DNA from: an uncultured Planctomycetia bacterium
GTDB taxonomy: Bacteria > Planctomycetota > MHYJ01 > WSZJ01
Direction of reading: 5' to 3'
Length of the DNA: 64,000 bases
Assembly: GCA_964590435.1 (NCBI GenBank)
Contig: CAZPWT010000008.1
Span: 83,880-147,879 of the forward strand
Position 1 is the first letter of the stretch. Each line of letters opens with the position of its first letter. The position numbers and the translations under genes were made by a program. The notes under the pieces were generated by a model. The model was not told the origin of the DNA. It saw only the letters and a list, made by a program, of their open reading frames with translations, and did no database searches. Shown here in pieces: positions 4,952 through 60,879 of the stretch.

Positions 4952-5851
4952 TTGCGGATGCGCGCTTCCCTCCCCGCGGCCCTGATCCTGCTGGCGGCCT
5001 CGTTCTGCGCCGCCGAGGACGCCGCGACGATCGAGATCAGGCCGGGCGTGCAGGCTGGTGCGAAGATCACGCGGACGATGCGGACCTCGGGGAAAGGGAC
5101 GATCACCGTCGAGGCCGGCGGCGACCCGAAGGAGTTCGAGTGCCGGATGGACGGGGTCGAGGAGGTCGCGGAGGAGGCGCTCGAGGCGAAGGACGGGCGC
5201 GCTTCCAAGGTGAAACGCCGCTACGACCGCAAGGAGTCGACGTTCGAGGTGCCGGCGGTCGGGAAGAAGGAAGAGAAGGCGAGCAGCCTGCCGGGGCTGG
5301 TGCTGACGCTCGAGCGCAAGGACGGGAAGACGTCGGCGACGTGCGCGGAGAAGAACGTCGAGCCGAAGGAGCTGGCGTCCGAGACGCTGGACGACGAATG
5401 GAGCGTGCCGCTGTCGCCGAAAGGGCCGGTGGCGAAGGGCGACGAGTGGAAGCCGGACGCCGCGGCCGTGAAGGCCTGGGCCTCGGCGCGCGGCCGGAAA
5501 GTCGAGGAGGCGGCGCTGTCGTGCCGGCTGGCGGAAATCGAAACGCGCGGCGGCCGGAAGTGCGCGCGGATCGAGGTCGATTTCGCCGCGAAAGGGACGA
5601 CGAAACCCGGGGAGAAGCAGCCGGAGCAGAAGCTCGCGTGGACGCTCAAGGGCGACGTCTGGTGGAGCCTCGACGACGCGCGGGTCGTGGCGTTCGAGCT
5701 GAAGGGCGACCTGACGCTCGAGTGGGACGTGCCGGCGGCCGCGGGGAAAGCGGCGGAGCACTGGAAGAGCGCGATGAAGATTGAGCTGGGGGGCGAGGGC
5801 AAGCCGGGAGAGGCGAAGTTCGGGGCGGAGCCGGCGGGGAACGGGAAATAG
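4952..5851 (+). CDS. Secreted hypothetical protein (paralog B of 3964..4872)
   Basis: Signal peptide; shared blocks with paralog A (KITRT, EAKDG, conserved Cys positions). Confidence 0.6.
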   Translation: MRMRASLPAALILLAASFCAAEDAATIEIRPGVQAGAKITRTMRTSGKGTITVEAGGDPKEFECRMDGVEEVAEEALEAKDGRASKVKRRYDRKESTFEVPAVGKKEEKASSLPGLVLTLERKDGKTSATCAEKNVEPKELASETLDDEWSVPLSPKGPVAKGDEWKPDAAAVKAWASARGRKVEEAALSCRLAEIETRGGRKCARIEVDFAAKGTTKPGEKQPEQKLAWTLKGDVWWSLDDARVVAFELKGDLTLEWDVPAAAGKAAEHWKSAMKIELGGEGKPGEAKFGAEPAGNGK

Positions 5852-9786: not shown

Positions 9787-10209
9787 CTACTCTCCGATCA
9801 CCTTCACGAGCACCCTCTTCGCCCGCCGCCCGTCGAACTCCCCGTAGAAGATCTGCTCCCACGGGCCGAAGTCGAGCTTTCCCTTCGTGATCGCGCACAC
9901 GACTTCGCGCCCCATGATCTGCCGCTTGTGGTGGGCGTCGGCATTGTCCTCGCCGGTGCGGTTGTGGTGGTAGCGATCGGGGGACGCGTCGAACGGCGCG
10001 AGCTGCTCGAGCCAGCGCTTGTAGTCCTCATGCAGGCCGCGCTCGTCGTCGTTGATGAAGACGCTCGCGGTGATGTGCATCGCGTTGACCAGGCAGAGGC
10101 CTTCCTTCACGCCGGATTTCGCGACGACCTGCTCGACCTGGGGAGTGATGTTCAGGAAGTCCATGCGGGCGGGGATGTTGAAAGTGAGGTACTCCGTGGT
10201 GGACTTCAT
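9787..10209 (-). CDS. YjbQ/UPF0047 family protein
   Basis: [65 protein letters not shown] matches UPF0047; start at internal ATG. Confidence 0.8.
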
Positions 10210-19063: not shown

Positions 19064-20038
19064 CTACTTCTTCTCCCGCAGCCCCTCGAGTTCTGCCTCG
19101 ACGCTCCGGATGATCTCCGTGTTCTTCATGCCCGAGGCCATCGCGGCCTCGAGGTGTCGCTGGGCGTCGTCCAGTCGACCTTCGCAGACTGCTTTCGACC
19201 CGGCCAGGAAGCGCCCCTCCGACTTGCGCAGGCTGTCGATGTTCTCGATCGACCCCTTCGCTTCCGCGAGCAGGGCCTCCTCCGTCACGTCCCCGAGGAG
19301 AAACAGCCCATAGGACTCCACCCGATCTCCCCGGGGTTTCCTCCCTTTCAACCACTCCCGCAGCTCCCCGTCCGCCGCCTCCTTCTTCCCAAGCCGCGCC
19401 TTGAGGATCCAGATCCGCAGCCGCGTGTAGTCCTGCCCCTCGCTCTCCAGCGAAACGCTCTTCTCCAGGTCCGCCAGCGCGTCTTCCCATTCGCGAAGGT
19501 TGTAGAGGCAGAGGCCGCGGTTGAGGTAGGCGCGGGCGTAATTCGGGTTGAGCTGAAGGGCCATCGTGGCGTCCTTGAGGGCGCCGTCGGCATCGCCGTT
19601 GAGGCGCTTCGCGAACGACCGGTTGTTCCACGCGAGCGCCAGGTCGGGGTCGAGGCGCAGCGCGGCGTCGTAGGAAGCGATGGCGCCGGCGAGGTCGCCG
19701 GAGTCGGCCTTGGCGAGGCCGAGGTCGTTGTGGAGGCCGGCGTTTTCGGGGGCGAGGGTGAGAGCCTTGTCGAAGTCCTCGAGAGCGCCCTTGAGATCCC
19801 CAAGGCGTCGGCGTATCAACGCGCGGTTGTGCCACGCTGTGTCATCCAGGGGATCGGATTCGATCAGCCGGGTGCAAGCCTGCTCGGCCCGCTTGAGTCC
19901 GTCCGTGGAACACCTTTCCCAACTGCGGAGGGTGTGCGGCTCAGGGAGCGGATCGTCCGCGAACGCAGGAATCACCAGGGCCAGGACCACGAGGGCACGA
20001 AGCATGTCCCCATCATCCCCCGTGCCGTCCCTTTTCAT
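19064..20038 (-). CDS. Secreted TPR-repeat protein
   Basis: Several TPR units (AWHNRALIRRRLGDLKGALEDFDKAL, YNLREWEDALADLEKS); ATG 20038 preceded by an AG-rich tract; alternative start 20005 (MLRALVVLALVIPAFA). Confidence 0.7.
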   Translation of the reverse strand: MKRDGTGDDGDMLRALVVLALVIPAFADDPLPEPHTLRSWERCSTDGLKRAEQACTRLIESDPLDDTAWHNRALIRRRLGDLKGALEDFDKALTLAPENAGLHNDLGLAKADSGDLAGAIASYDAALRLDPDLALAWNNRSFAKRLNGDADGALKDATMALQLNPNYARAYLNRGLCLYNLREWEDALADLEKSVSLESEGQDYTRLRIWILKARLGKKEAADGELREWLKGRKPRGDRVESYGLFLLGDVTEEALLAEAKGSIENIDSLRKSEGRFLAGSKAVCEGRLDDAQRHLEAAMASGMKNTEIIRSVEAELEGLREKK

Positions 20039-20070
20039 TTTTCCTTTTTCCTTTTTCGTTTTTCCTTTCC
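20033..20070. repeat. Pyrimidine-rich TTTTTCC-type tandem tract (AG-rich on the minus strand)
   Basis: tttcatttttcctttttcctttttcgtttttcctttcc, in the divergent region between the TPR and PDZ genes; read on the minus strand it gives repeated GGAAAAA units upstream of the TPR start. Confidence 0.6.
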
Positions 20071-23424: not shown

Positions 23425-23485
23425 CCCTTTCCCTTTCCCTTTCCCTTGCCCTCCCTCGCAACCCGCAACCCGCAACTCGCAACTC
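23425..23485. repeat. Microsatellite-like tandem repeats (CCCTTT)n and (CNCGCAA)4
   Basis: ccctttccctttcccttgccctccctcgcaacccgcaacccgcaactcgcaactccccc in the intergenic region between the two esterase genes. Confidence 0.6.
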
Positions 23486-25130: not shown

Positions 25131-26735
25131 ATGCGACTGCGCCTCGCCCTCCTGCTCTTCCTCGCCTCCACGACCGCCGCCGAGGAGCCGTTGCGCGACC
25201 GCTGGATCTACGTCTCGCGCAACCTCTGGGTCGACAAGAACGTCGACGAGGTGGAAGCGCTGTTCCGGCGCGCGGCGGCGGCGGGCTACAACGGCGTGCT
25301 GCTGTCGGACTCGAAGTTCTCGCGGCTGGAGGACATGGACAAGCGGTACTTCGCGAACGTCGACCGCCTGAAGAAGGTGGCGGCGGAGCTGAAGCTGGAG
25401 ATCGTGCCGGCGGTGTTCCCGATCGGGTACTCCGAGGGACTGCTGTCGCGAGACCCCGATCTCGCCGAGGGGCTGCCGGTGCGGGACGCGCTGTTCGTGG
25501 TAAAGAACGGCGAGGCGCGGGTGGAAGCGGACCCGGCCCTGGCGCTGAAGGGCGGCGACATGGCCGACCTGAAGGCCTGGGACTGGAAGGACGAGACGGT
25601 CGTGGCGGAAGACGGCGAGGCGAGAGTGACGGACCCGAAGGGAAAGAACGCGCGGATCGTGCAGAAGGTCAAGGTCGCGCCGTGGCGCCAGTACCACATC
25701 TCGGTGCGCGTGAAGACCGAGAACTTCCGCGGCGAGCCGCGCGTCGCCGTGCTCGCGGGCGAGCGGTCGCTCAACCACGCAAACCTCGGCGCCAAGCCGA
25801 CGCAGGACTGGACGACGCACCACGTCGTCTTCAACTCGCTCGACGCGACCGAAGTCGGCGTCTACCTCGGCGCCTGGGGCGCGGATACCGGCTCGCTCTG
25901 GTGGGACGACGCGACGATCGAGGAAGCGGGCCCGGTGAATCTCGTCCGCCGCGAAGGCGCCCCGCTCATCGTCACCGCCGACGGCGGCCTCCCCCTCGCC
26001 GAGGGCAAGGACTTCGAGCCGCTCACCGACCCGAAGATGGGCACGGTCCCCTGGCGCGGCGGCTTCGAGGTCTGGCACGAGCCCCCCGCCCTCAAGACCA
26101 GCCTCAAGGAAGGCACCCGCCTCCGCGTCTCGTACTTCCACGCCCTCACCGTCCACGACGGCCAGGTCATGGTCTGCCCTTCAGAGCCCAAAACCCTCGA
26201 TCTCCTCCGCGACCAGATGAAGCGCGTCCACGCCGCGTTCGGAGCGAAGGCCTACTTCATGTCCCACGACGAGATCCGCGTCATGGGCTGGGACGACTCC
26301 TGCGCCAAGCGCGGCCTCGACGCCGGCGCGATCCTCGCGGACAACGTGAAGGCCTGCACGAAGATCGTCCGCGACGTCGCCCCCGGCGCCCGCATTTTCG
26401 TCTGGAGCGACATGTTCGACCCGCACCACAACGCCCACGCGAACTACTACCTCGTGAAGGGCGACCTCAAGGGCTCCTGGGAGGGCCTCGACAAGGACGT
26501 GATCGTCGCCTGCTGGTATTTCGACAAGCGCGCCGAGAGTCTCAAGTTCTTCGCCGACCGCGGGCACAAGACGCTCATCGCCGGCTACTACGACGCGAAC
26601 CCGAAGCAGATCCTGAAATGGCTGGAGGCGGGCAAGGCCGCCGGCGGAGTCGAAGGCGCGATGTACACGACGTGGGAGAACAAGTACGAGGACATGGAGG
26701 AGTTCGGGGCGCTGCTCGGTAAGTCGGGTCGGTAG
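25131..26735 (+). CDS. Secreted hypothetical protein, possibly glycoside-hydrolase-like
   Basis: Signal peptide MRLRLALLLFLASTTAA; 534 aa; function inferred only from context next to hydrolases. Confidence 0.55.
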   Translation: MRLRLALLLFLASTTAAEEPLRDRWIYVSRNLWVDKNVDEVEALFRRAAAAGYNGVLLSDSKFSRLEDMDKRYFANVDRLKKVAAELKLEIVPAVFPIGYSEGLLSRDPDLAEGLPVRDALFVVKNGEARVEADPALALKGGDMADLKAWDWKDETVVAEDGEARVTDPKGKNARIVQKVKVAPWRQYHISVRVKTENFRGEPRVAVLAGERSLNHANLGAKPTQDWTTHHVVFNSLDATEVGVYLGAWGADTGSLWWDDATIEEAGPVNLVRREGAPLIVTADGGLPLAEGKDFEPLTDPKMGTVPWRGGFEVWHEPPALKTSLKEGTRLRVSYFHALTVHDGQVMVCPSEPKTLDLLRDQMKRVHAAFGAKAYFMSHDEIRVMGWDDSCAKRGLDAGAILADNVKACTKIVRDVAPGARIFVWSDMFDPHHNAHANYYLVKGDLKGSWEGLDKDVIVACWYFDKRAESLKFFADRGHKTLIAGYYDANPKQILKWLEAGKAAGGVEGAMYTTWENKYEDMEEFGALLGKSGR

Positions 26736-26776
26736 CTGGTGGTCAGTGGTTGGTGGTCAGTGGTAACGACGACGAA

Positions 26777-26805
26777 AACGGCCACGAGGAGCCCTCGTGG
26801 CCGTT
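26777..26805. terminator. Hairpin, probable bidirectional intrinsic terminator
   Basis: Perfect 13-bp stem AACGGCCACGAGG / CCTCGTGGCCGTT with 3-nt loop, T-rich flank on both strands, at a convergent gene junction. Confidence 0.5.
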
Positions 26806-26862
26806 CTTGTCTCGCGTTTGGATCGGGCCTTGCCCGTCCACCAACCACCGACCACCGACTCC

Positions 26863-27162
26863 CTACCCCTTTTCCGGCCCTCTCGACCCGAGCTCGCGAT
26901 CGATCTCGAGCAGCGCCACGGGATCGTTCTTGATGAGATTGAACTTCGCGACAATGTCCCTCGCCGACTTCTCTTCCTCCACCTGCTCCGTCAGGAACCA
27001 CTGCAGCTCGACCATCAGCGAGAGCGCCTTTTCCTTCTGCGCCAGCTCGTACAGCGCGTCGATCCGCTTCGAAACGCTCAGTTCCTGCGCCAGCGCCGCT
27101 TCGAAGACTTCCTGCATCCCCTTGAACTTCACCTTCGGCTCCGGGATCGCGTTCAGCTTCAC
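26863..27162 (-). pseudogene. Truncated 3-prime copy of the ferritin gene (about 100 C-terminal codons, diverged)
   Basis: About 95% identical at DNA level to 28123..28435 (ferritin C-terminus) with a few amino-acid substitutions; lacks the N-terminal half of ferritin. Confidence 0.6.
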
Positions 27163-27175
27163 GCCGCCGCCGCGG

Positions 27176-27871
27176 TTATGGTCTGAGTTGCCTCTGGCAC
27201 CATCGGAGCGTCTCCCTCAGGCTCTCCACATAGTGGTCCGAGTCAGGAGACTCCGCCCGCGGGCAAGTCTCCGAGGTCTCCCATTTCAGGTCCTTCAGAA
27301 TCTCCTCGAGAACCCCGCAATACAGCCCGATCCAGTCCGGGTCCTTCCACGCATCCAGTACTTCGAGCGCCTTCTCCACCAGGACATCGAGCAACTGCCG
27401 GTGCCGGTCCACATCCACGACGAAGCCTTCAACCATCAGGCATGTCGTGCACTCGTGGCCGAATTGGTCGATCTGGATGTCCGTCATCGGAATCTCGAAG
27501 TTGCGGGCCCTACCGACGTAGTCGAGCAGGAAGACTTCGAACCGAGCAGGTCCTTCCTTTCGATTCCCCAGAAGCCAAAGCATGTGGGTACAGACGCGCT
27601 GGATATGGAAGATCTCCGAGCCTTCATCGAGAGCTTCGATCAGGCGGCGCCCGGACTTGAAATCCACGTCGTTCTCGCCCTGCAACTGCGGCTCGAGCGC
27701 AGCCAGCTCCAGCAGAAGCCTCTGAATTCGCTGGTCTTGTTCGAACTGGAAGTGCGTTTCGCGATAGTCGCCCCACGCATCGGACTTCGTAGGAGTGCGC
27801 TGAATGTCCGCGCAACCGGCAGATACCAGCGAGATTGCAACCAGGAACAGTCGTGTTGAGCACACGTTCAT
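27176..27871 (-). CDS. Hypothetical lipoprotein encoded in a low-GC island
   Basis: MNVCSTRLFLVAISLVSAGC lipobox; perfect AAGGAGG Shine-Dalgarno 6 nt before ATG; GC visibly lower than flanking DNA. Confidence 0.65.
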   Translation of the reverse strand: MNVCSTRLFLVAISLVSAGCADIQRTPTKSDAWGDYRETHFQFEQDQRIQRLLLELAALEPQLQGENDVDFKSGRRLIEALDEGSEIFHIQRVCTHMLWLLGNRKEGPARFEVFLLDYVGRARNFEIPMTDIQIDQFGHECTTCLMVEGFVVDVDRHRQLLDVLVEKALEVLDAWKDPDWIGLYCGVLEEILKDLKWETSETCPRAESPDSDHYVESLRETLRWCQRQLRP

Positions 27872-28033: not shown

Positions 28034-28064
28034 CGGCCACGAGGTTCACTCGTGGCCGAATTTT
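28034..28064. terminator. Hairpin terminator downstream of ferritin
   Basis: 10-bp stem CGGCCACGAG / CTCGTGGCCG with 5-nt loop, followed by AATTTT on plus and TTTCTCTGTT on minus. Confidence 0.5.
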
Positions 28065-28116
28065 CCGTGCGTGTTGTCTTGGCCTTTCCTGGCCGCCGGC
28101 CGCTGGCAACTCGCCA

Positions 28117-29205
28117 TTACCCCTTCTCCGGCCCTCTCGACCCGAGCTCGCGATCGATCTCGAGCAGCGCCACGGGATCGTTCTTGATGAGATTGAACTT
28201 CGCGACGATGTCCCGCGCCTGCTTCTCCTCTTCCACCTGCTCCGTCAGGAACCACTGCAGCTCGACCATGAGCGAGAAGGCCTTCTCCTTCTGGGCCAGC
28301 TCGTACAGCGCGTCGATCCGCTTCGAAACGCTCAGCTCCTGCGCCAGCGCCGCCTCGAAGACCTCCTGCATGCTCTTGAACTTCACCTTCGGCTCCGGGA
28401 TCGCGTTCAGCTTCACGCCGCCTCCACGGTTCTGGAGGAAGTCGAGCAGCTTCATGGCGTGCCCGTATTCCTCGGAGCTCTGGATCCGGAGCCACTTCGC
28501 AAATCCGTGAAAGTGGTTCGCGGAGCAGTGGGCGGACATCGCGAGGTAGGTGTAGGAAGAGACGAGCTCGTTGTTGATCTGCTCGTTGACGGCTTCGAGG
28601 ACGTTGGCGGTGACCATGGCGGCTCCTTTGGAGTGGGAGGGTCGGGACGGCGGCGCATTCTGCGTATGGAGGGCGGGAAGCGCAACTCCTTGTAGCGTGG
28701 AGATTTCTGGCCAGCCGTAGCCGGCGTGGGGGAGGTCCTGGGAACCGAAGCGGGAGGACTTCTCGCCGGCGGGGCGGCCGCCGAGGGACTCGTAGAAGCG
28801 GCGGGAGGGGGCGTTGTCGCGGAGGACCCAGAGGACCATGGCGCGGTGGCCGGCGGCAGCCAGGTCGCGGGCGAGGGCGGCGACGAGGGCGCTTCCCAGG
28901 CCTTTTCCTGCAAAGGCTTTGCGGATGTAAATCGCGTACAGCTCGGCGTCGTATTCGGTGTCGAGATCGCGGTTGGGGCCCCCCGTCGCGAACCCCACGA
29001 CTTTGCCGCGCACCTCCGCCACGAACGTGATCGTCCCGGGCGTCGCCAGCCGCTGGCGGCGGCGCTTCTCGAAGTCCGCGTACGACAGCGATTTCAGGTA
29101 AGCGGCGTCGACGATGCCGCGGTAGGCGGTGCGCCACGTGTCGACGTGGACGCGGGCGATCGCCGGCGCGTCGGATTCGGTCGCGGGTCGGATGCGCGGG
29201 GTCAT
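28117..29205 (-). CDS. GNAT N-acetyltransferase and ferritin in one uninterrupted frame (ferritin domain 28117..28617 has its own ATG and RBS)
   Basis: GNAT N-terminus (MTPRIRPATESDAPAIARVHVDTW..GKGLGSALVAAL..RFYESLGG), Pro/Ala linker, then ferritin (VLEAVNEQINNELVSSYTYLAMSAHC..EEYGHAMKLLDFL) with no stop between; AAGGAG 5 nt before the internal ferritin ATG; GNAT ATG overlaps upstream stop. Confidence 0.6.
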   Translation of the reverse strand: MTPRIRPATESDAPAIARVHVDTWRTAYRGIVDAAYLKSLSYADFEKRRRQRLATPGTITFVAEVRGKVVGFATGGPNRDLDTEYDAELYAIYIRKAFAGKGLGSALVAALARDLAAAGHRAMVLWVLRDNAPSRRFYESLGGRPAGEKSSRFGSQDLPHAGYGWPEISTLQGVALPALHTQNAPPSRPSHSKGAAMVTANVLEAVNEQINNELVSSYTYLAMSAHCSANHFHGFAKWLRIQSSEEYGHAMKLLDFLQNRGGGVKLNAIPEPKVKFKSMQEVFEAALAQELSVSKRIDALYELAQKEKAFSLMVELQWFLTEQVEEEKQARDIVAKFNLIKNDPVALLEIDRELGSRGPEKG

Positions 29206-41868: not shown

Positions 41869-42993
41869 ATGGCGATCAAGATCGGCGTGCTCGGCGGCGA
41901 CGGGATCGGACCGGAAGTCTGCCGCGAAGGCCTGAAAGTCCTCGACACCGTCTGCGAACTCCGCGGCTTCGACGTGGAGCGCATCGAATGGCCGTACGGC
42001 GCCGACTACTGCATGGAGACCGGCGGCCCCGGCAAGGGGACGGTCCTCCCGGACTCGATCTGGAGCGAGATCAAGGAACTCGACGCCATCTTCCTCGGCG
42101 CGATCGGCGACCCGCGCTTCGAGGCCGGATTCCTCGAGTTCGGCATCGTCGGGAACCTCCGGTTCAAGCTCGACCTTTACGTGAACCTGCGCCCGATCAA
42201 GCTCTACAGCGAGGACCTGTGCCCGCTGAAGGGGAAGGGCGTGAAGGACCTGGACATGCTCGTGGTGCGCGAGAACACGGAGGACGCGTACGCCGGGATC
42301 ATGGGGCACCTCAAGAAAGGGACGCCGGACGAGGTGGCGATCCAGGAGATGATCTACACGCGGAAGGGCGTCGAGCGCGTGATCCGGTATGCGTACCAGA
42401 AGTGCATGGAGCGGAAGAAGGCGTTCAAGCTGTCGCTGGTGGACAAGGCGAACGCGATCCGCGCGCACGACATCTGGCGGCGGACGTTCGCGGAGGTGGG
42501 GAAGGAATTCCCGAAGGTGCAGCAGGACGCGATGTACGTCGACGCGTGCACGATGTGGATGGTGAAAAACCCGGAGAGTTTCGACACCGTGGTGACGACG
42601 AACCTCTTCGGCGACATCATCACCGACCTCGGCGCGATGCTGCAGGGCGGCCTGGGGATCGCGGCGGGCGGCAACATCCACCCGGGGCGGGTCTCGATGT
42701 TCGAGCCGATCCACGGGAGCGCGCCGAAGTACAAGGGGCAGAACAAGGCGAACCCCCTCGCGGCGATCAACGCGATGGGGATGCTGCTCGACCACGTCGG
42801 CCGGAAGGAAGAAGCGGCGCTGATCGAGAAGGCCGTCTCGGGGCTGCTCGCGACGAAGCGCGTGGCGAGCCTTCAGGCCGGCGCGATGCCGTGCGACAAG
42901 ATCGGTGACCTGGTTTCGAATGAAGTGCGTGTGCTGGCGGGGGACAAGCCGAGGAAGAGCGCAACAAAGGGGAAAGTCGGGGCGAAGCGGTAG
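41869..42993 (+). CDS. leuB: 3-isopropylmalate dehydrogenase-like (isocitrate/isopropylmalate dehydrogenase family)
   Basis: GAGAGGAG before ATG; NLFGDIITDL and IHGSAPKYKGQNKANPLAAI family motifs; tartrate dehydrogenase cannot be excluded. Confidence 0.8.
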   Translation: MAIKIGVLGGDGIGPEVCREGLKVLDTVCELRGFDVERIEWPYGADYCMETGGPGKGTVLPDSIWSEIKELDAIFLGAIGDPRFEAGFLEFGIVGNLRFKLDLYVNLRPIKLYSEDLCPLKGKGVKDLDMLVVRENTEDAYAGIMGHLKKGTPDEVAIQEMIYTRKGVERVIRYAYQKCMERKKAFKLSLVDKANAIRAHDIWRRTFAEVGKEFPKVQQDAMYVDACTMWMVKNPESFDTVVTTNLFGDIITDLGAMLQGGLGIAAGGNIHPGRVSMFEPIHGSAPKYKGQNKANPLAAINAMGMLLDHVGRKEEAALIEKAVSGLLATKRVASLQAGAMPCDKIGDLVSNEVRVLAGDKPRKSATKGKVGAKR

Positions 42994-43001
42994 GTGACGA
43001 C

Positions 43002-43026
43002 GTCGAAGGTCGAAGGTTGAAGGTCC
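43002..43026. repeat. GTCGAAG heptamer tandem array
   Basis: gtcgaaggtcgaaggttgaaggtcc, 9 nt after the leuB stop; same element in reverse complement at 52797..52828. Confidence 0.6.
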
Positions 43027-43168
43027 GGGGAAACCGGCAATGATGGACGACCGATTCCCCACCGACACCCCTACCCGATCCCGACACAACCTGCCTGCCC
43101 CCAACCTTCGACTTTCGACGTCCTTTCCTTCCGCAATCTCCTCCCCCACCCACCCCCCGGAGACCCCA

Positions 43169-44270
43169 ATGGCCGAAACACTGCGACGCGCCCAGGAACT
43201 GAAAGCCCGCCTCGATGCCCTCCGGGACTCTCTTTGACCTCCCTAAAAAGAGGCTCGAGCTCGACCGCATAGAGACGGAAATGGGCGCCGCGGACTTCTG
43301 GAACAACCAGGAGGCGGCGAAGAAGAAGGTCCTGCAGCTCAAGGCGCTCAAGGGACTCGTCGACCCCGTCGAAGCGCTCACCAAGGCGTTCACGGACGCC
43401 GCGGAGCTCGCCGAACTCGCCGAGGGCGAGAACGACGCCGCCACCGTCAAGCAGGTCGCCGCCGACCTCGTGAAACTCGAGGCCGAGCTCGCCGCCATCG
43501 AGCTCCGCACGCTCTTCAAGGACGACAACGACTCCCGCGACTGCTTCATGGCCATCCAGGCAGGCACGGGCGGCACCGACGCGTGCGACTGGGCCCAGAT
43601 CATCCTCCGCATGTACAAGGCCTACTGCGAGCGCATGGGGTTCGAGGCCAAGCTGATCGACGTGCAGGAGGCCGACGAGGCCGGCATCCGCTCCGCCACG
43701 CTCGAGGTCCGCGGCCCGTACGCCTACGGTTACCTCAAGGGCGAGCACGGCGTCCACCGGCTCGTCCGCATCTCCCCCTTCGACGCCAACCACCGCCGCC
43801 AGACCGCGTTCGCTTCCGTCGACGTCACGCCGGAGTTCGAGGAGGAGGACATCGAGATCAAGGAAGCGGATCTCAAGATCGACACGTACCGGTCAGGGGG
43901 CGCTGGGGGCCAGCACGTGAACGTGACCGACTCGGCCGTCCGGCTCACACACATCCCGACGGGGATCATCGTCGCGTGCCAGAACGAGCGCTCGCAGCCG
44001 CTCAACAAGAAGATGGCTCTGAAGTACCTCGCCGCGAAGCTCCTCGCGGCGCGCGAGGCCGAGCGCTCCGCCAAGATCGACGCCGCCCGCGGCGCCAAGG
44101 GGCGCATCGGCTTCGGCAGCTCCAGCCAGATCCGCAGCTACACCATGAACCCGTTCCAGCTCGTCAAGGACGCCCGCACCGATATGGAGTCCGGAAACAT
44201 CCAGGCGGTGCTGGACGGCCGGCTGGAGGAGTTCGTCGAGGCCTATCTCAAGTGGAATGCGAGGCAATAG
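43169..44270 (+). CDS. prfB: Peptide chain release factor 2, requires +1 programmed frameshift at 43232..43238
   Basis: ORF0 MAETLRRAQELKARLDALRDSL ends at CTT TGA C; the +1 frame continues DLPKKRLELDRIE through the SGGAGGQHVNVTDSAVRLTHIPTG (GGQ) motif. Confidence 0.85.
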
Positions 44271-44282
44271 CCCGCCCGCGAG

Positions 44283-44476
44283 GGGAAAGGGCAACTTCAA
44301 GACGACGAACTACAAGTAAATGGCGAACTTCAAGACTGCAACTTCAAGGGTTGCCGCGAAGCTGGTCCTCCCGATCCTGCGCGGAGACCGATCGCCGGCA
44401 CGAACGCATTCGCCGGCAGGCTTGAAATTGTCGTCTTGAAGTTGCCGTTTACTTGAGAATTGAAACGTTGTCGTTG
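44283..44476. repeat. Array of direct and inverted AACTTCAAG / CTTGAAGTT repeats
   Basis: Left arm has four spaced copies of (C/G)AACT(T/A)CAAG, right arm has three inverted copies; lower GC than flanks; only small spurious ORFs overlap. Confidence 0.5.
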
Positions 44477-51563: not shown

Positions 51564-52843
51564 GACGTGAACACCTCCACGACCTTGCGGAGGGCGGCCT
51601 CGAGGGCGAGGGCTTCCTCCGGAGTGTTGTAGAACGCGACGGAAGCGCGGGCGGTGGCGGGGAGGCCGAGGCGGGTCATGACGGGCTGGGCACAGTGGTG
51701 GCCGGTGCGGATGGCGACGCCCTCGCGGTCGGCGATGGTGCCGATATCGTGGGGGTGGATGCCCTCGAGGACGAAGGAAGCGACGCCGGCCTTGTCCTTC
51801 GCGGTGCCGACGAGTTTCGCGCCGGGGACGCGGAGGATGGCGGCCTCGAAGGCGGCGAGGAGTTCCTTTTCGCGGGCGGCGATGCGGTCCATGCCGATCG
51901 CCGACAGGTAGTCGATCGCGGCGCCGAGTCCGACGACGCCCTCGATGTTCGGGGTGCCGGCTTCGAACTTCGCGGGGACCTCGGCCCAGGTGGACTTCTC
52001 GAAGCTGACGCTGGAGATCATGTCGCCGCCGCCCTGCCACGGGGGAAGCGAGTTCCAGAGGGCGAGCGGGGCCCAGGCGACGCCGATGCCGGTGGGGGCG
52101 CACATCTTGTGGCCGCTGAAGATATAGAAGTCGGCGCCGATGTCTTTCACGTTCACGGGCTGGTGCGGGACGGCCTGCGCGCCGTCGACGAGGACCGTCG
52201 CGCCGGCGGCCTTCGCCATCCGGGCGATCTCGCGGATCGGGGTGACGGTGCCGAGGGCGTTCGAGACGTGCGTGACGGCGACGAGCTTCGTCTTCGGCGA
52301 CAGGAGCTTCGCGTACTCCGCCATGTCCAGCTCGCCCGCGTCGTTCATGGGGATGACGCGGATCTTCGCGCCCTTCTCTTCGCACAGCAGCTGCCACGGG
52401 ACGATGTTCGAGTGGTGCTCGAGCGTCGAGAGCACGATCTCGTCGCCCTTCCCGATCCGCGTCCGCCCGAACGTCTGGGCGACGAGGTTGATCCCCTCGG
52501 TGGCGCCGCGGACGAAGACGCACTCGCGGGGATCGGCGGCATTGATGAAGCGGGCGACTTTCTTCCGGACGCCCTCGTACGCGATCGTCGCCTGCTCGGA
52601 GAGCCAGTGCACGCCGCGGTGGATGTTGGCGTTGTGCGATTCGTAGTACTCGCGCACCGCGTCGATGACGACCTGCGGCTTCTGGCTCGTCGCGGCGTTG
52701 TCGAGGTAGACGAGCGGCTTGTTGCGCACGGACTGCTTCAACGCCGGAAAGTCGGATCGCACGGCAGCCCAGTCGACCGGGCGGTCGGGGCCAGGCCCTT
52801 CAACCTTCGACCTTCGACCTTCGACGCCGTTCTCCGTCCTCAA
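51560..52843 (-). CDS. sufS: Cysteine desulfurase SufS (copy 2)
   Basis: RSDFPALKQSVRNKPLVYLDNAATSQKP, SGHKMCAPTG, RTGHHCAQP; TTG start placed to overlap the sufD stop (TTGA), a GTG about 75 nt downstream is an alternative; ORF 51560..53389 has an Arg-rich upstream extension. Confidence 0.75.
   Translation of the reverse strand: MRTENGVEGRRSKVEGPGPDRPVDWAAVRSDFPALKQSVRNKPLVYLDNAATSQKPQVVIDAVREYYESHNANIHRGVHWLSEQATIAYEGVRKKVARFINAADPRECVFVRGATEGINLVAQTFGRTRIGKGDEIVLSTLEHHSNIVPWQLLCEEKGAKIRVIPMNDAGELDMAEYAKLLSPKTKLVAVTHVSNALGTVTPIREIARMAKAAGATVLVDGAQAVPHQPVNVKDIGADFYIFSGHKMCAPTGIGVAWAPLALWNSLPPWQGGGDMISSVSFEKSTWAEVPAKFEAGTPNIEGVVGLGAAIDYLSAIGMDRIAAREKELLAAFEAAILRVPGAKLVGTAKDKAGVASFVLEGIHPHDIGTIADREGVAIRTGHHCAQPVMTRLGLPATARASVAFYNTPEEALALEAALRKVVEVFTS
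52797..52828. repeat. GTCGAAG heptamer tandem array (reverse-complement copy)
   Basis: Minus strand reads ggcgtcgaaggtcgaaggtcgaaggttgaagg, shortly after the sufD stop; same unit as 43002..43026 with one extra copy. Confidence 0.6.
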
Positions 52844-54947: not shown

Positions 54948-55011
54948 CTCAGTCCTTCCCTTTCCGTTTTTCTGTTGTCCTTCACTGGCCGCTGGCAACT
55001 GGCCGCTCGCC

Positions 55012-58081: not shown

Positions 58082-59890
58082 ATGAAACCACGCCTCGTTT
58101 TGTTTTTCGCCGCGGCCGCCGCATTCGGGGTCGCGCTGCGGGCGGAGGATCCGCCGAAGGAAGCGCCCCCGGCGAAGGTCGAAGGGCCGGTTCTCGACGC
58201 AGCCGTGGAGAAACGCCTGAAGCAGGCGCTCGACTGCGTGAACCTGTCGGTCGAGGACCTCGGCTGGGACAAGCGCCCGCTCTCCGACGAGTGGCGGCTC
58301 AACTGCGTGAACGACACGCTCGACCACCCGATGAAGCTCGCGGACTGGGCGCAGCGGGCGGAAAAGGAATTCGCCGACGACCCTCAGGCCGCGGCGCGCA
58401 ACGGCGCCGCGTGGATGGACATCGACGCGGCAAAGATGACCGTGATGCGCGAAGGGAAATTCGGGATGCAGCTCGACGTCGAGCCGCCCGCCGCCCGCGA
58501 TCTCATCCTCACGGTCCTCAGCGGCTGGCGCTTCGCCGAATCCCAGCGCCGCGCGGCGATGGAGAAGCTCGACGACGCGGACGAAGCGGCGCTCGCGACG
58601 GACGGCGTGCGGCTGTACGCGGACACTTCCGAGCAGGAATGGGACAGCGCGGCGGTGCTGAAGACGGCGTCGAAGATCGACCTCGCGGGGCTGTTCCGGG
58701 CGGAGCTGGCGCTCGCCGACCTCGCGGCGCAACTGCGCAAGGCCGCGGTGGACGGCAAGGCCTGGAAGACGGGGAGCTGGAAGCCCGAGGGGATGGGCGC
58801 GTACCCGGAGCTGAAGGGGCTGTCGATCGGGATCGGCGGGCCGGGGCCGGACAGGCACACGGAGGACATCGTGATCGACGCGGGCGGCGACGACGAGTAC
58901 GTCGGGTGCCGCTTCGTGCTCGACCTCGGCGGCGACGACACGTATCGCGGCTGCGGGAAGGGGCTGGTCGCGTGCGGGCTGATCGTCGACATGGCCGGGA
59001 ACGATCGCTACATCGACGGGAATGTGGCGCAGGGCGGCGCGGCCTTCGGCGCTTCGCTGCTCGTGGACGTCGCGGGGGACGACCGGTACGAAGCGGACCA
59101 GGTGTCGCAGGGGTCGGGGTTTTTCGGGGTGGGGATGCTGTTCGACCTGGCGGGGGACGACGGGTACCGGGGGGCGCGGCACGTACAGGGGTTCGGGGGC
59201 GTGAAGGGGTTGGGGGTGCTGTCGGACGTCGCGGGCAACGACACCTACTACGCGGGCGGCAAGTATTCGCACGCACCGCTGTTGCCGGAGAACTTCCAGT
59301 CGCTGTCGCAGGGGTTCGGGTTCGGGCTGCGACCGAACGTGTCTGGCGGCGTGGGGATCCTGGCGGACCACGCGGGGAACGACCAGTACACGGCGGAAGT
59401 GTTCGGGCAGGGGGCGAGCTACTGGTTCGCGCTGGGGGTGCTGGTGGACTCGGCGGGACATGACAAGTACGACCTGTACCAGTACGGGCAGGGGTCCGGC
59501 ATCCACCTCTCGAGCGGCGTGCTGTTCGACCGCGCGGGGAACGACGCTTACTCGTGCAACAACGGCGTGGCGCAGGGGTGCGGCCACGACTGGGCCGCGG
59601 GGATGCTTCTCGACCTCGCCGGGAACGACTACTACCAGGGCGCCGGCATGACCCACGGCGGCGCGAACGCCAACGGCTTCGGCATCCTCATCGACCGCGC
59701 CGGCGACGACGCCTACTCGGGTGTCCGGCCGGAGTGCCAGGGCTGGTCGTTCCAGAGCCGCGGGACCTTCGGCCTCGGCGTGCTGCTGGATCTCGGCGGG
59801 AAGGATCGGTACTCGCAGGGCGGAAGGGACAACACGGCGTGGACGAAGAGCTGGCTGGGAGTTGGACTGGATTGCGAGGAGGGGAAATGA
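58082..59890 (+). CDS. Secreted repeat protein with about 12 DxAGNDxY units (beta-helix-like, inferred)
   Basis: Signal peptide MKPRLVLFFAAAAAFGVALRA; recurring 20-25 aa units (VDMAGNDRYIDG, VDVAGDDRYEAD, SDVAGNDTYYAG, LDLAGNDYYQGA). Confidence 0.7.
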   Translation: MKPRLVLFFAAAAAFGVALRAEDPPKEAPPAKVEGPVLDAAVEKRLKQALDCVNLSVEDLGWDKRPLSDEWRLNCVNDTLDHPMKLADWAQRAEKEFADDPQAAARNGAAWMDIDAAKMTVMREGKFGMQLDVEPPAARDLILTVLSGWRFAESQRRAAMEKLDDADEAALATDGVRLYADTSEQEWDSAAVLKTASKIDLAGLFRAELALADLAAQLRKAAVDGKAWKTGSWKPEGMGAYPELKGLSIGIGGPGPDRHTEDIVIDAGGDDEYVGCRFVLDLGGDDTYRGCGKGLVACGLIVDMAGNDRYIDGNVAQGGAAFGASLLVDVAGDDRYEADQVSQGSGFFGVGMLFDLAGDDGYRGARHVQGFGGVKGLGVLSDVAGNDTYYAGGKYSHAPLLPENFQSLSQGFGFGLRPNVSGGVGILADHAGNDQYTAEVFGQGASYWFALGVLVDSAGHDKYDLYQYGQGSGIHLSSGVLFDRAGNDAYSCNNGVAQGCGHDWAAGMLLDLAGNDYYQGAGMTHGGANANGFGILIDRAGDDAYSGVRPECQGWSFQSRGTFGLGVLLDLGGKDRYSQGGRDNTAWTKSWLGVGLDCEEGK

Positions 59891-60879
59891 GAGTTGCCAG
59901 CGGCCGGCGGCCAGCGGCCAGGGGCCTGGTCCTGATGGCGGTCCTGTCGATGTCGCTCCCCGCGGCGGCGGAGGAGCTCGACCTCGAGGGGTGGTGGAAG
60001 GACGCCTGCTTGTGGGAGGTCGGGTCGAACCTGGAGAAGGTGCCGGCCGCGCGGAAGAAGCTCATTGAAGCGGGTGCGCCTACGATCGAATTCCTCATCC
60101 CGGGGAAACTTGACGCGGCGGACACGATCATCACCCGCGCGCTCAGCATGGTCATCACCGGCATCGCGGGGACGGCTACGCAGAAGCCGCAGAGCCTGGA
60201 GATCCGCGAGAAGACCATCAAGGGGCTGATCGCCGCCATCGACTCGAACCTGCCCAACGTCCGCCGCAACGCCGCCGACCTCCTCGGCCAGCTCGGCGCC
60301 ACCGAGGCCGCTTCGAAAATCGCCGGCCTCCTCGCCGACAAGGACGCCCGCGGCGGCGCGCTCGCCGCCCTCGGCGCGCTCAAGGCCCAGTCCGCCGTGC
60401 CGGCCATCGCCGCCATGGCGCGCGACGCCTCCGTCTCCGAACGCGGGCGCTTCACCGCCGTCTCCACACTCGGCGCCATCGGCGGTCCCGACGCCCAGGC
60501 CGCCCTCCTCGAGTTCCTCGGCGACAAGCTCGCGACCGTGCGCTTCGCCGCCCAGTACGCGCTCGAAGCGATGCGTTCCACCGGGGCGTTCGTCAGCAGG
60601 CTCCGCGACGCCGACCGCCGCGTCCGCATCCACGCTCTCTCCGCCCTCGGCCACCTCGCCGAGCGCTCCACCCGCGCCGACATCCGCCCGCTCCTCGACG
60701 ATCCCGACGCGACCGTGCGCGGCTTCGCGGTGGAAGCGCTGGCGGCGATGCCGAAGCCGTCGGACCGGGCGTGGGTGGACGCGATGCTCGTGACGGAGAA
60801 GGACGAGTTCGTGCGCGGCAAGCTGCTCGAGGCGCGCGGGATCCTGCTCGACCCGCCTCGGCCGGACGGGACGAGGTAG
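59887..60879 (+). CDS. Secreted HEAT-repeat protein, translationally coupled to the upstream repeat protein
   Basis: ATG overlaps upstream stop (ATGA); signal peptide; repeated xxVRxxAAxALGxLG-type HEAT units. Confidence 0.7.
   Translation: MRVASGRRPAARGLVLMAVLSMSLPAAAEELDLEGWWKDACLWEVGSNLEKVPAARKKLIEAGAPTIEFLIPGKLDAADTIITRALSMVITGIAGTATQKPQSLEIREKTIKGLIAAIDSNLPNVRRNAADLLGQLGATEAASKIAGLLADKDARGGALAALGALKAQSAVPAIAAMARDASVSERGRFTAVSTLGAIGGPDAQAALLEFLGDKLATVRFAAQYALEAMRSTGAFVSRLRDADRRVRIHALSALGHLAERSTRADIRPLLDDPDATVRGFAVEALAAMPKPSDRAWVDAMLVTEKDEFVRGKLLEARGILLDPPRPDGTR

Follow-up and report, generated by a model that had tools for sequence, protein, structure and literature searches.

Tandem repeats of 7 nt have been known from bacteria since the description of the short tandemly repeated repetitive (STRR) units of cyanobacteria (CCCCAGT, TTGGTCA and CAACAGT), and their general over-representation since 2007; their role is a long-standing question. 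Rehm et al. (2015; PMC4692102) described heptameric simple sequence repeats (SSRs) with the units GGGAATC in Xanthomonas and GGGGAYT in Nostoc PCC 7120. These heptamers are over-represented in intergenic DNA and favour spacers between co-oriented open reading frames (ORFs); they lie close to or overlap stop codons on the sense strand, and those located upstream of an ORF are on the antisense strand. Many form inverted pairs, and their position is conserved between species while their length is variable. As cited in the same paper, STRR heptamers were reported for Calothrix PCC 7601. As cited there and by MacGregor (2015; PMC4679880), Mrazek et al. (2007) reported long SSRs with units of 5-11 nt and a general excess of heptanucleotides, with the idea that the approximately 7 nt in the polymerase favour slippage. 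MacGregor (2015) described TAACTGA direct repeats in marine Beggiatoaceae, some Cyanobacteria and Bacteroidetes, in sets of 2-6 units that abut start codons; binding of cold-shock proteins (Csp), ribosomal protein S1 or CsrA was proposed for them. In this work, we analysed a repeated 24-nt element in a 64,000-nt stretch of DNA (the window; contig CAZPWT010000008.1, positions 83,880 to 147,879) from an uncultured Planctomycetia bacterium. The 24-mer is 3.4 units of a 7-nt tandem repeat (unit CCAGYKG, first unit GAGYKG), not a discrete element.

The 24-mer is a segment of a heptamer array

The sequence GAGTTGCCAGCGGCCGGCGGCCAG is present exactly at 28089-28112 (minus strand, copy 1) and at 59891-59914 (plus strand, copy 2), with 0 copies expected. 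No further match with 3 or fewer mismatches was found in the window, and none of 100 dinucleotide shuffles gave any, so that both the double occurrence and the non-chance origin claimed in the original prediction stand. A ferritin gene ends in the TAA at 28117-28119, and copy 1 follows 4 nt past it. An upstream 602-aa gene ends in the TGA at 59888-59890; copy 2 starts with the very next base, within an ATGA stop/start overlap, and codes for roughly residues 2-9 of a HEAT-repeat protein. The core AGTTGCCAGCGGCC is also found at 54987-55000 (minus strand), between the sufB TAG and the sufC ribosome-binding site (RBS). Each of the three copies has the same orientation as the genes beside it. The placement directly after stop codons, the overlap with residues 2-9 of the HEAT protein, the third site in the sufB-sufC spacer and the co-orientation with transcription had all been predicted and were confirmed. 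By contrast, the third copy had been described as shortened, and it is not: 54985-55008 (minus strand) is a full 24-nt relative, GAGCGGCCAGTTGCCAGCGGCCAG, with two units swapped. Nor is copy 1 clearly inside an operon, as had been claimed, since a terminator-like hairpin 30 nt downstream puts it at the end of a transcription unit rather than in an operon interior.

The degenerate pattern GAGYKGCCAGYKGCCRGYKGCCAG matches the three sites and nowhere else in the window (0 expected). Aligned in phase, the three sites read TAA-TGGC GAGTTG CCAGCGG CCGGCGG CCAG-GAAAGG (copy 1), ATGA GAGTTG CCAGCGG CCGGCGG CCAGCGG CCAGGGG CC (copy 2) and TAG-GGC GAGCGG CCAGTTG CCAGCGG CCAG-TGAAGG (copy 3). The 7-nt units are head to tail, 3.4 of them in copies 1 and 3 and five in copy 2, where Tandem Repeats Finder (TRF) reported a period of 7 with 4.4 copies and 87% matches (59896-59926).

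Other sources of the shared sequence were rejected. A 23-codon ORF starting at an ATG that overlaps the ferritin TAA (MASCQRPAARKGQDNTHGKFGHE) has the array in a different frame from that of copy 2 and is unsupported. The likeness upstream of copies 1 and 2 (AGGGGWAATG) reflects the ferritin C-terminus, is present in a ferritin duplicate too, and was taken as chance. A stop codon in register with the unit (TAG for CAG/GAG) was seen in some metagenome arrays; copies 1-3 lack this register, so it is not general.

Period-7 arrays in the window

TRF found period-7 arrays elsewhere in the window, with the units (GTCGAAG)n at 43002-43025 and 52797-52825, (GTGGTCA/GTCGGTG)n at 26739-26764 and 26834-26859, (CTCGCAA)n at 23455-23485 and (TCCTTTT)n at 20028-20068. 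The window carries at least 8 heptamer arrays with different units besides the three copies, about 11 arrays in 64 kb (Table 1). Under a strict test (three units, at most one mismatch) there were 6 period-7 arrays vs. 0.1 in shuffles, 6/6 outside called genes, and 0 arrays in the window with periods of 8-12. The 14-nt two-unit pattern matched 6 times vs. 0.02 expected, with no additional two-unit copies. Beyond the duplicated ferritin segment, the only exact repeats of at least 20 nt in the window are the 24-mer and a 23-mer common to both GTCGAAG arrays. At the sites measured (copies 1-3, 43002 and 52797) the arrays sit 0-14 nt past stop codons; window arrays lie outside called genes or in variable protein tails.

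Table 1. Heptamer arrays and associated features in the window (positions are those of the window).
Feature	Position	Strand	Evidence
Copy 1, heptamer array GAGTTG CCAGCGG CCGGCGG CCAG, 30 nt before terminator hairpin	28089..28112	-	pattern match, folding
Copy 2, five-unit array GAGTTGC CAGCGGC CGGCGGC CAGCGGC CAGGGGC, in frame in HEAT-protein signal-peptide n-region (MRVASGRRPAARG...)	59891..59926	+	
Copy 3, heptamer array GGC GAGCGG CCAGTTG CCAGCGG CCAG, 0-3 nt past sufB TAG, followed by AGTGAAGGACA and sufC RBS	54985..55011	-	
Intrinsic-terminator-like hairpin CGGCCACGAG-TGAAC-CTCGTGGCCG + TTTCTCTGTT, 10-bp stem, T-rich tail, 30 nt downstream of copy 1	28034..28058	-	
Intact ferritin gene A, 166 aa, its stop precedes copy 1	28117..28617	-	Pfam PF00210, E 7e-39
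Ferritin 3'-half duplicate B, ~94% identical to A, offset 1254 nt	26863..27170	-	
Array (GTCGGTG)2 GTTGGTG past TAG of ferritin B; 5' arm of long stem enclosing terminator hairpin (26775-26803)	26834..26859	-	z = -9.8
Inverted partner array (..GTCGGTA GCTGGTG GTCAGTG GTTGGTG GTCAGTG)	26723..26764	+	TRF, folding
Array (GTCGAAG)2 GTTGAAG, 8 nt past TAG of isocitrate/isopropylmalate dehydrogenase gene; exact 23-mer in common with the 52797 array	43002..43025	+	
Inverted partner (CCAACCTTCGACTTTCGACGTCC) of the 43002 array; pair gives 21-bp stem across icd-prfB spacer	43101..43123	+	folding z = -4.1
Array (GTCGAAG)3 GTTGAAG, 14 nt past sufD TGA; in variable SufS N-terminal tail if TTG overlapping the TGA is the start	52797..52826	-	
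Array GAGTTGC GAGTTGC GGGTTGC GGGTTGC, antisense to both flanking genes, GAG end ~31 nt from downstream ATG	23455..23485	-	
Hexamer array (CCCTTT)4-5, pyrimidine-rich, 2 nt past upstream TAA, directly before (CTCGCAA)n array	23425..23452		
Array (TCCTTTT)~6, pyrimidine-rich, distinct unit type, divergent spacer, 22 nt from start codon of minus-strand gene	20028..20068	+	

Gain, loss and remodelling in relatives

Orthologous loci were compared in L001, a syntenic Planctomycetia metagenome-assembled genome with ~90% nucleotide identity, and in L122-L125, obtained via SufC homologues of 96-88% identity. A scan of 185,579 species genomes (the source genome not among them) for the exact 24-mer returned only L001, at the orthologous HEAT-gene junction. 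There the array is identical at 36 of 36 positions, inside a 48-nt identical stretch; the flanking coding sequence differs by ~9-13%, with divergence also in the hydrophobic part of the signal peptide. The ATGA start is kept at this junction in all relatives examined. L123 has only the seed ATGAGAGTTGC (M-R-V-A) and L125 nothing, and the HEAT N-terminus of L122 (~5040-5087, minus strand) has an unrelated 16-nt tandem duplication (GGAGGGCGGGTGCGCG x2) in place of heptamers. Given these junctions (seed, other duplication, nothing), the array of the window and L001 is an in-frame expansion in the signal-peptide n-region, which is a hotspot for repeat expansion.

At the sufB-sufC spacer, L001 carries one extra 7-nt unit compared to the window. 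L122 has CGAG instead of CCAG units (GAGTTGC GAGCGGC GAGTCGC GAGTGAA), L123 only two units (GAGTTGC GAGTGAA) and L124 a longer mixed array, giving a graded series of 2 to about 7 units across L122-L124. In L125, the most distant relative examined, this spacer (9941-10000) has no array and holds a perfect 28-nt GC palindrome (GCGGGCGCGGGGCATGCCCCGCGCCCGC). At the sufD-sufS junction none of L122-L125 has an array; these relatives have a variable SufS N-terminal tail there, and the window array is in frame with SufS provided that translation starts at the TTG that overlaps the sufD TGA. Between icd and prfB, L122 has a spacer of 7 nt and the window one of 176 nt that includes the array hairpin. 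Most other window arrays are lineage-specific. Arrays are gained, lost and remodelled quickly, in 7-nt steps where the steps are visible. An odd 418-aa SufC match (P0001), considered as a read-through of an array, is actually a partially duplicated SufC.

Array replacement behind a duplicated ferritin gene

Ferritin A and its 3'-half duplicate B (Table 1) are set apart by ~0.95 kb with a lower-GC3 (G+C at third codon positions) ORF. Their post-stop spacers are collinear, 59 and 60 nt long, with the same terminator at the end. The arrays inside these spacers are the 24-mer behind A and (GTCGGTG)2 GTTGGTG behind B, and ~5/7 positions differ in every unit. As such differences are beyond independent point mutation, one array must have been replaced wholesale. 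The copy-2 array is common to the window and L001 and so is older than their split, and L001 has no second exact 24-mer, which makes copy 2 the older copy. The simplest reading is that gene conversion or template switching copied a short patch of the HEAT-gene array to the spacer behind ferritin A. Arrays at separate loci of one genome are built from the same type of unit (CCAG units in the window and in L001, CGAG units in L122); this would amount to concerted evolution across loci and fits inter-locus copying.

The insert between the ferritin copies contains a lipoprotein-like ORF (27176-27871; GC3 0.74 vs. about 0.9 in the neighbours), for which no Pfam hit was obtained, and a short ORF. 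The arrangement looks as if an insertion or recombination had carried in a ferritin 3' end and a terminator of its own. L126-L128 each have a single ferritin gene with no CCAG array behind it. Beyond the terminator of ferritin B, the inverted partner array (26723-26764) runs over the TAG (26733-26735) of the convergent gene 25131-26735 (tail ...GKSGR*) and over its last 4-5 codons; in L127 the orthologue of this gene has a different end (...KYIAPGK*). Arrays can therefore encroach on C-terminal coding sequence.

Placement, strand and pairing in metagenomes

The degenerate pattern carries ~41 bits, and roughly one chance match was estimated across the metagenome collection. It matched at least 120 metagenome contigs. 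Among the matches listed, to which the counts for pattern-selected arrays below also refer, most are clean arrays in which GTTGCCA, GTGGCCA, GCGGCCA or GCTGCCA is repeated 3 to more than 18 times; G+C in these contigs runs from 0.34 to 0.72, and other heptamer arrays often adjoin. Seven viral contigs also match. The reversed pattern gave 2 matches in viral contigs vs. 7, but it is itself heptad-periodic and no clean null, and we give this comparison no weight.

Gene calls on the metagenome contigs were rough and based on GC3. A co-oriented gene lies on the GAG side of 51 pattern-selected arrays, and 35 of these 51 start -3 to +12 nt from the stop of that gene. The array overlaps the stop as T|GAG in eight cases and as TA|GAG in three. 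Only 3 arrays abut the stop of a convergent gene at their other end. An inverted partner array lies 5-165 nt away from 27 arrays (about a fifth), always on the distal side, and the two pair into long hairpins.

Because the degenerate pattern fixes the GAG boundary, the placement test was repeated on heptamer arrays not chosen by the pattern, in the same loci and the window. Fifty of 54 such arrays lie outside called genes (796 kb of related and metagenome loci, 78% coding). Fifteen of 37 are within 16 nt of a stop codon vs. 5.3 expected (sd 1.9), and 5 are near start codons vs. 5.1 expected. On the sense strand of stop-adjacent arrays, AG without CT was found 12 times and CT without AG 0 times; start-adjacent arrays mostly carry the opposite strand. 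Nearly all sense-strand units have AG at a fixed phase of the heptad (CAGTTGC, GAGTCGG, CAGTGGG, GAGTGAC, AAGGTCG). The stop-boundary and orientation bias of the original prediction thus holds in larger samples (35/51; 15 vs. 5.3; 12:0). The absence of any positional or orientation bias relative to genes had been named in advance as the result that would speak against it, and a bias of both kinds was found.

The (GTTGCCA)n unit was also seen in contigs of only 34-38% G+C (L010, L063, L100 and L113). Some loci have different heptamer families end to end, e.g. (GTTGCCA)6 then (GTGGGCA)n, (GAGTTGC)4 then (CAGTTGC)4, or (GGATCGG)n then (GAGTTCG)n; examples are L013 7650-7897, L039 3073-3129, L050 591-700 and L035 1222-1323.

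Folding and known element classes

The flanking RNA was folded, as had been proposed with the prediction, and no structure of the three copies was found beyond the copy-1 terminator: the folds of copies 2 and 3 are at the level of shuffles (z = -0.33 and -0.06), and around copy 1 only the separate terminator folds. Paired arrays form long stems, at 42990-43135 (z = -4.1) and at 26725-26870 (z = -9.8, enclosing the terminator hairpin). Such pairs make 20-bp stems around terminators, and single arrays have no fold of their own. The Rfam 15 covariance models gave 0 matches at the gathering score in the whole window.

Repetitive extragenic palindromic (REP) sequences and the related BIME and REPIN elements of enterobacteria and pseudomonads are imperfect palindromes, present in hundreds of near-identical copies and associated with a RAYT transposase. 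Like the arrays, they are short, dispersed and extragenic, they often lie just past stop codons inside operons, and their paired forms are hairpins. Unlike them, single window arrays are non-palindromic tandem heptads with few members per family. Copies 2 and 3 show no palindromic structure above the level of shuffles, and copy number is not high either, as the exact 24-mer occurs once in a related species-representative genome, at the orthologous site. A REP-like hairpin was ruled out because the single copies have no structure of their own, and the REP-like dispersed element suggested in the original prediction gave way to 7-nt tandem units with no fold and few exact copies. Of the features of MITEs (miniature inverted-repeat transposable elements), inverted arms are present in the arm-loop-arm modules and absent from single arrays, and no target-site duplication was seen at the icd-prfB insertion.

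HutP sites of the Bacillus hut operon consist of three NAG triplets with 4-nt spacing, before and within the terminator. By sequence alone, copies 1-3 fit such a NAG-N4 pattern, with CAG or GAG every 7 nt and copy 1 at 30 nt before a terminator. The likeness (heptad-spaced NAG motifs, 3-5 per cluster, on RNA beside terminator hairpins) may serve as a lead only; HutP sites differ in that they belong to a single regulated operon and are not a genome-wide pattern. Readings as G-quadruplexes, Rho rut sites (regularly spaced YC), Chi-like sites (AGCGG) or RNase E sites (AGUU) were considered and set aside; none fits all unit families. All defining features of the intergenic heptanucleotide SSR class that could be examined (units, excess, orthologue variation and placement) were found.

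Comparison with described heptamers

The window arrays share with the Xanthomonas and Nostoc heptamers the 7-nt tandem units, the non-coding location mostly between co-oriented ORFs, the frequent inverted pairs and, between related genomes, a conserved position with variable length and sequence. They differ in that the unit CCAGYKG is without G3 tracts, so that no G-quadruplex is possible, the arrays are heterogeneous in their units (TTG, CGG, TGG), the host is a planctomycete and some arrays are translated as N-terminal tails. Since CCAGYKG cannot form G-quadruplexes, the G-quadruplex explanation offered for the same anatomy in Xanthomonas and Nostoc is not general; this common unit family stands as a contrast to G-quadruplex-capable heptamers.

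With STRRs, the arrays have in common tandem heptamers, several unit families per genome and an intergenic location. Two of the three STRR units given above have a CAGT core, as do CCAGTTG and CCAGTGG. STRRs come from another phylum with a different G+C, and their arrays are often much longer. The TAACTGA repeats are also heptamers in 2-6 copies, intergenic, tight against a coding boundary and patchy in their phylogenetic distribution; their reverse complement TCAGTTA resembles CCAGTTG, and their orientation upstream of start codons is that of the start-adjacent (CT-strand) mode of the present arrays. However, they lie mostly upstream of starts and have one dominant unit, whereas the present arrays are mainly downstream of stops and fall into many families.

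A literature search for (GTTGCCA)n or (GTGGCCA)n strings found no bacterial paper. Judged by sequence and placement, the CCAGYKG arrays belong to the known heptameric, stop-abutting SSR class, and their unit and phylum appear to be new. The case extends this class to a new phylum, with a unit family that is frequent in environmental metagenomes and was not met in the literature that could be searched. It also adds what looks like concerted array evolution across loci of one genome, and the wholesale replacement behind the duplicated ferritin gene. Annotators of such genomes should read short exact repeats at the ends of genes as tandem-repeat arrays and not as discrete regulatory motifs, and heptamer arrays may be translated as N-terminal tails.

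Origin and possible function of the arrays

The units are head to tail, orthologues differ in whole units and in unit sequence, presence is lineage-specific, and the placement and strand rules and the folds are as described above. From this, we consider it probable, though far from certain, that these are slippage-driven heptanucleotide arrays seeded at gene boundaries, homogenised within and between arrays, kept where they are tolerated and transcribed with the upstream gene. An array would arise from a proto-repeat at a gene boundary, such as the GAGTTGC GAGTGAA of the L123 sufB-sufC spacer. Replication slippage in 7-nt steps would then make it grow, shrink and become homogeneous, and short-patch gene conversion or template switching may exchange sequence between arrays at separate loci. 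Such an exchange could have made the ferritin array identical over 24 nt to the older HEAT-gene array. Arrays would persist only where they disturb neither frame nor signals, that is, in gaps between a stop and the next signal and in tolerant N- or C-terminal tails. They would be transcribed together with the upstream gene, unstructured when alone and as stems when paired. If the arrays have a function, it most likely lies in a modest effect in cis, on the spacing, 3'-end structure or stability of the mRNA; they probably have no role as a specific 24-nt signal.

Several observations weigh against this slippage scheme. Neutral slippage with tolerance does not predict the strand bias (12:0; 35 vs. 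3 among the matches listed), nor the left-justification to the stop codon where there is room on the other side. GTTGCCA or GTGGCCA recurs in contigs of 0.34-0.72 G+C, again among the matches listed, and in viral contigs; recurrence over such a range is a hint of sequence-specific selection or spread. Between flanks that differ by ~9-13%, the copy-2 array is identical to that of L001 at 36/36 positions, which is unexpected for a fast-slipping neutral array. Finally, the conversion of copy 1 by copy 2 is read from the arrays and was not itself observed, and convergence within a restricted unit alphabet is an alternative to it.

The strand bias, the left-justification and the invariance of copy 2 leave room for a rival, a functional RNA platform, in which an oligomeric single-strand RNA-binding protein sits on heptad-spaced NAG(Y) motifs of the mRNA directly after the stop. 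We regard such a platform as unlikely, yet worth serious consideration. The protein could control formation of the terminator hairpin, Rho access, mRNA decay or the coupling of translation; conceivable candidates are rings of the HutP or TRAP type, cold-shock-domain proteins (~7 nt each) and ribosomal protein S1. The strand and position rules hold in both selected and unselected samples, AG keeps its heptad phase in nearly all sense-strand units, contigs that differ widely in G+C carry the same unit, the copy-2 array is unchanged in two genomes and arrays are often the 5' arm of hairpins around terminators. Bacillus HutP provides a precedent for binding to NAG triplets at this spacing. Binding of Csp, S1 or CsrA has been proposed for the TAACTGA heptamers (PMC4679880). 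Against a platform, arrays were gained or lost at 4 of the 5 loci examined, between genomes with SufC ~88-96% identical, and unit sequences vary widely among the arrays of one genome. L125 has its unrelated GC palindrome in place of the sufB-sufC array, and no candidate binding protein was identified (the window proteins were not scanned for the HutP family).

In a broader and rather doubtful proposal, the CCAGYKG, GGGAATC (Xanthomonas), STRR (cyanobacteria) and TAACTGA (Beggiatoaceae) families might belong to one widespread post-transcriptional system of strand-specific arrays with NAGY at every 7 nt of the mRNA and an oligomeric RNA-binding factor, or else a templated mechanism and not slippage might write the arrays and copy them between loci. 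In the first case, a conserved RNA-binding factor would coat the first 20-35 nt past the stop and set hairpin read-through, Rho access or mRNA 3' decay. Such a factor, or templated copying, would explain the strand rule, the left-justification, the recurrence of units across G+C and the concerted evolution within genomes.

It seems improbable that the arrays are, or come from, a mobile or templated element inserting at gene ends, be it of REP/REPIN or MITE type or the product of a dedicated enzyme. Such an origin would account for two distant array pairs in 64 kb that share exact 24- and 23-mers with the order of variant units included, for within-genome arrays being more alike than orthologous arrays between genomes, and for the lineage-specific arm-loop-arm modules (176 nt vs. 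7 nt in the icd-prfB spacer). The GAG ends also point outward in all 27 inverted pairs among the matches listed, like terminal inverted repeats. But neither an inverted repeat nor a fold is present in single arrays, the icd-prfB module shows no target-site duplication and L001 has only the orthologous exact copy. The 7-nt steps and the graded series of 2-7 units at one locus are as in-situ slippage predicts, and no transposase was tied to the arrays (no search aimed at RAYT genes was made).

It is very improbable that copy 2 is a phase-variation switch that toggles the HEAT gene by gain or loss of one 7-nt unit after the ATG. The array does lie in the 5' coding region with a unit length not divisible by 3, and heptanucleotide repeats have been described as driving phase variation in Haemophilus; on the other hand, the unit number is identical and in frame in both genomes with the copy-2 array (the window and L001), copies 1 and 3 are non-coding and a similar array is found in the N-terminal tail of SufS, a housekeeping enzyme. 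A chance or compositional artefact of a 68% G+C genome can be dismissed: the 14-nt core with 2 mismatches is not significant alone (3 found, 0.93 expected), but the artefact is refuted by the shuffles, none of which yielded the 24-mer or the degenerate pattern, by the two-unit pattern count, by the period test (period 7 alone among periods 7-12) and by the array conserved in the L001 orthologue.

Other features of the window

The gene that follows the icd-prfB array hairpin, prfB (release factor 2; 43170-44270, plus strand), has the classical programmed +1 frameshift site CTT TGA C. The slippery site is at 43232-43238, after a 22-codon first frame (MAETLRRAQELKARLDALRDSL*), and the L122 orthologue likewise has ctctttgacc. 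The prfB stop is followed by a long inverted-repeat module of roughly 14-nt units (AACTTCAAGAC...; 44288-44450), with an exact 16-mer inverted pair at 44290 and 44431. The same position in L122 holds a hairpin of (GTTGGTA)n heptamer arrays, the sequence of which is unrelated to the module in the window. A 14-nt palindrome, GACGCAGTGCGTCA, occurs three times in the window (17677, 61068 and 62943) and could be an operator-like site.

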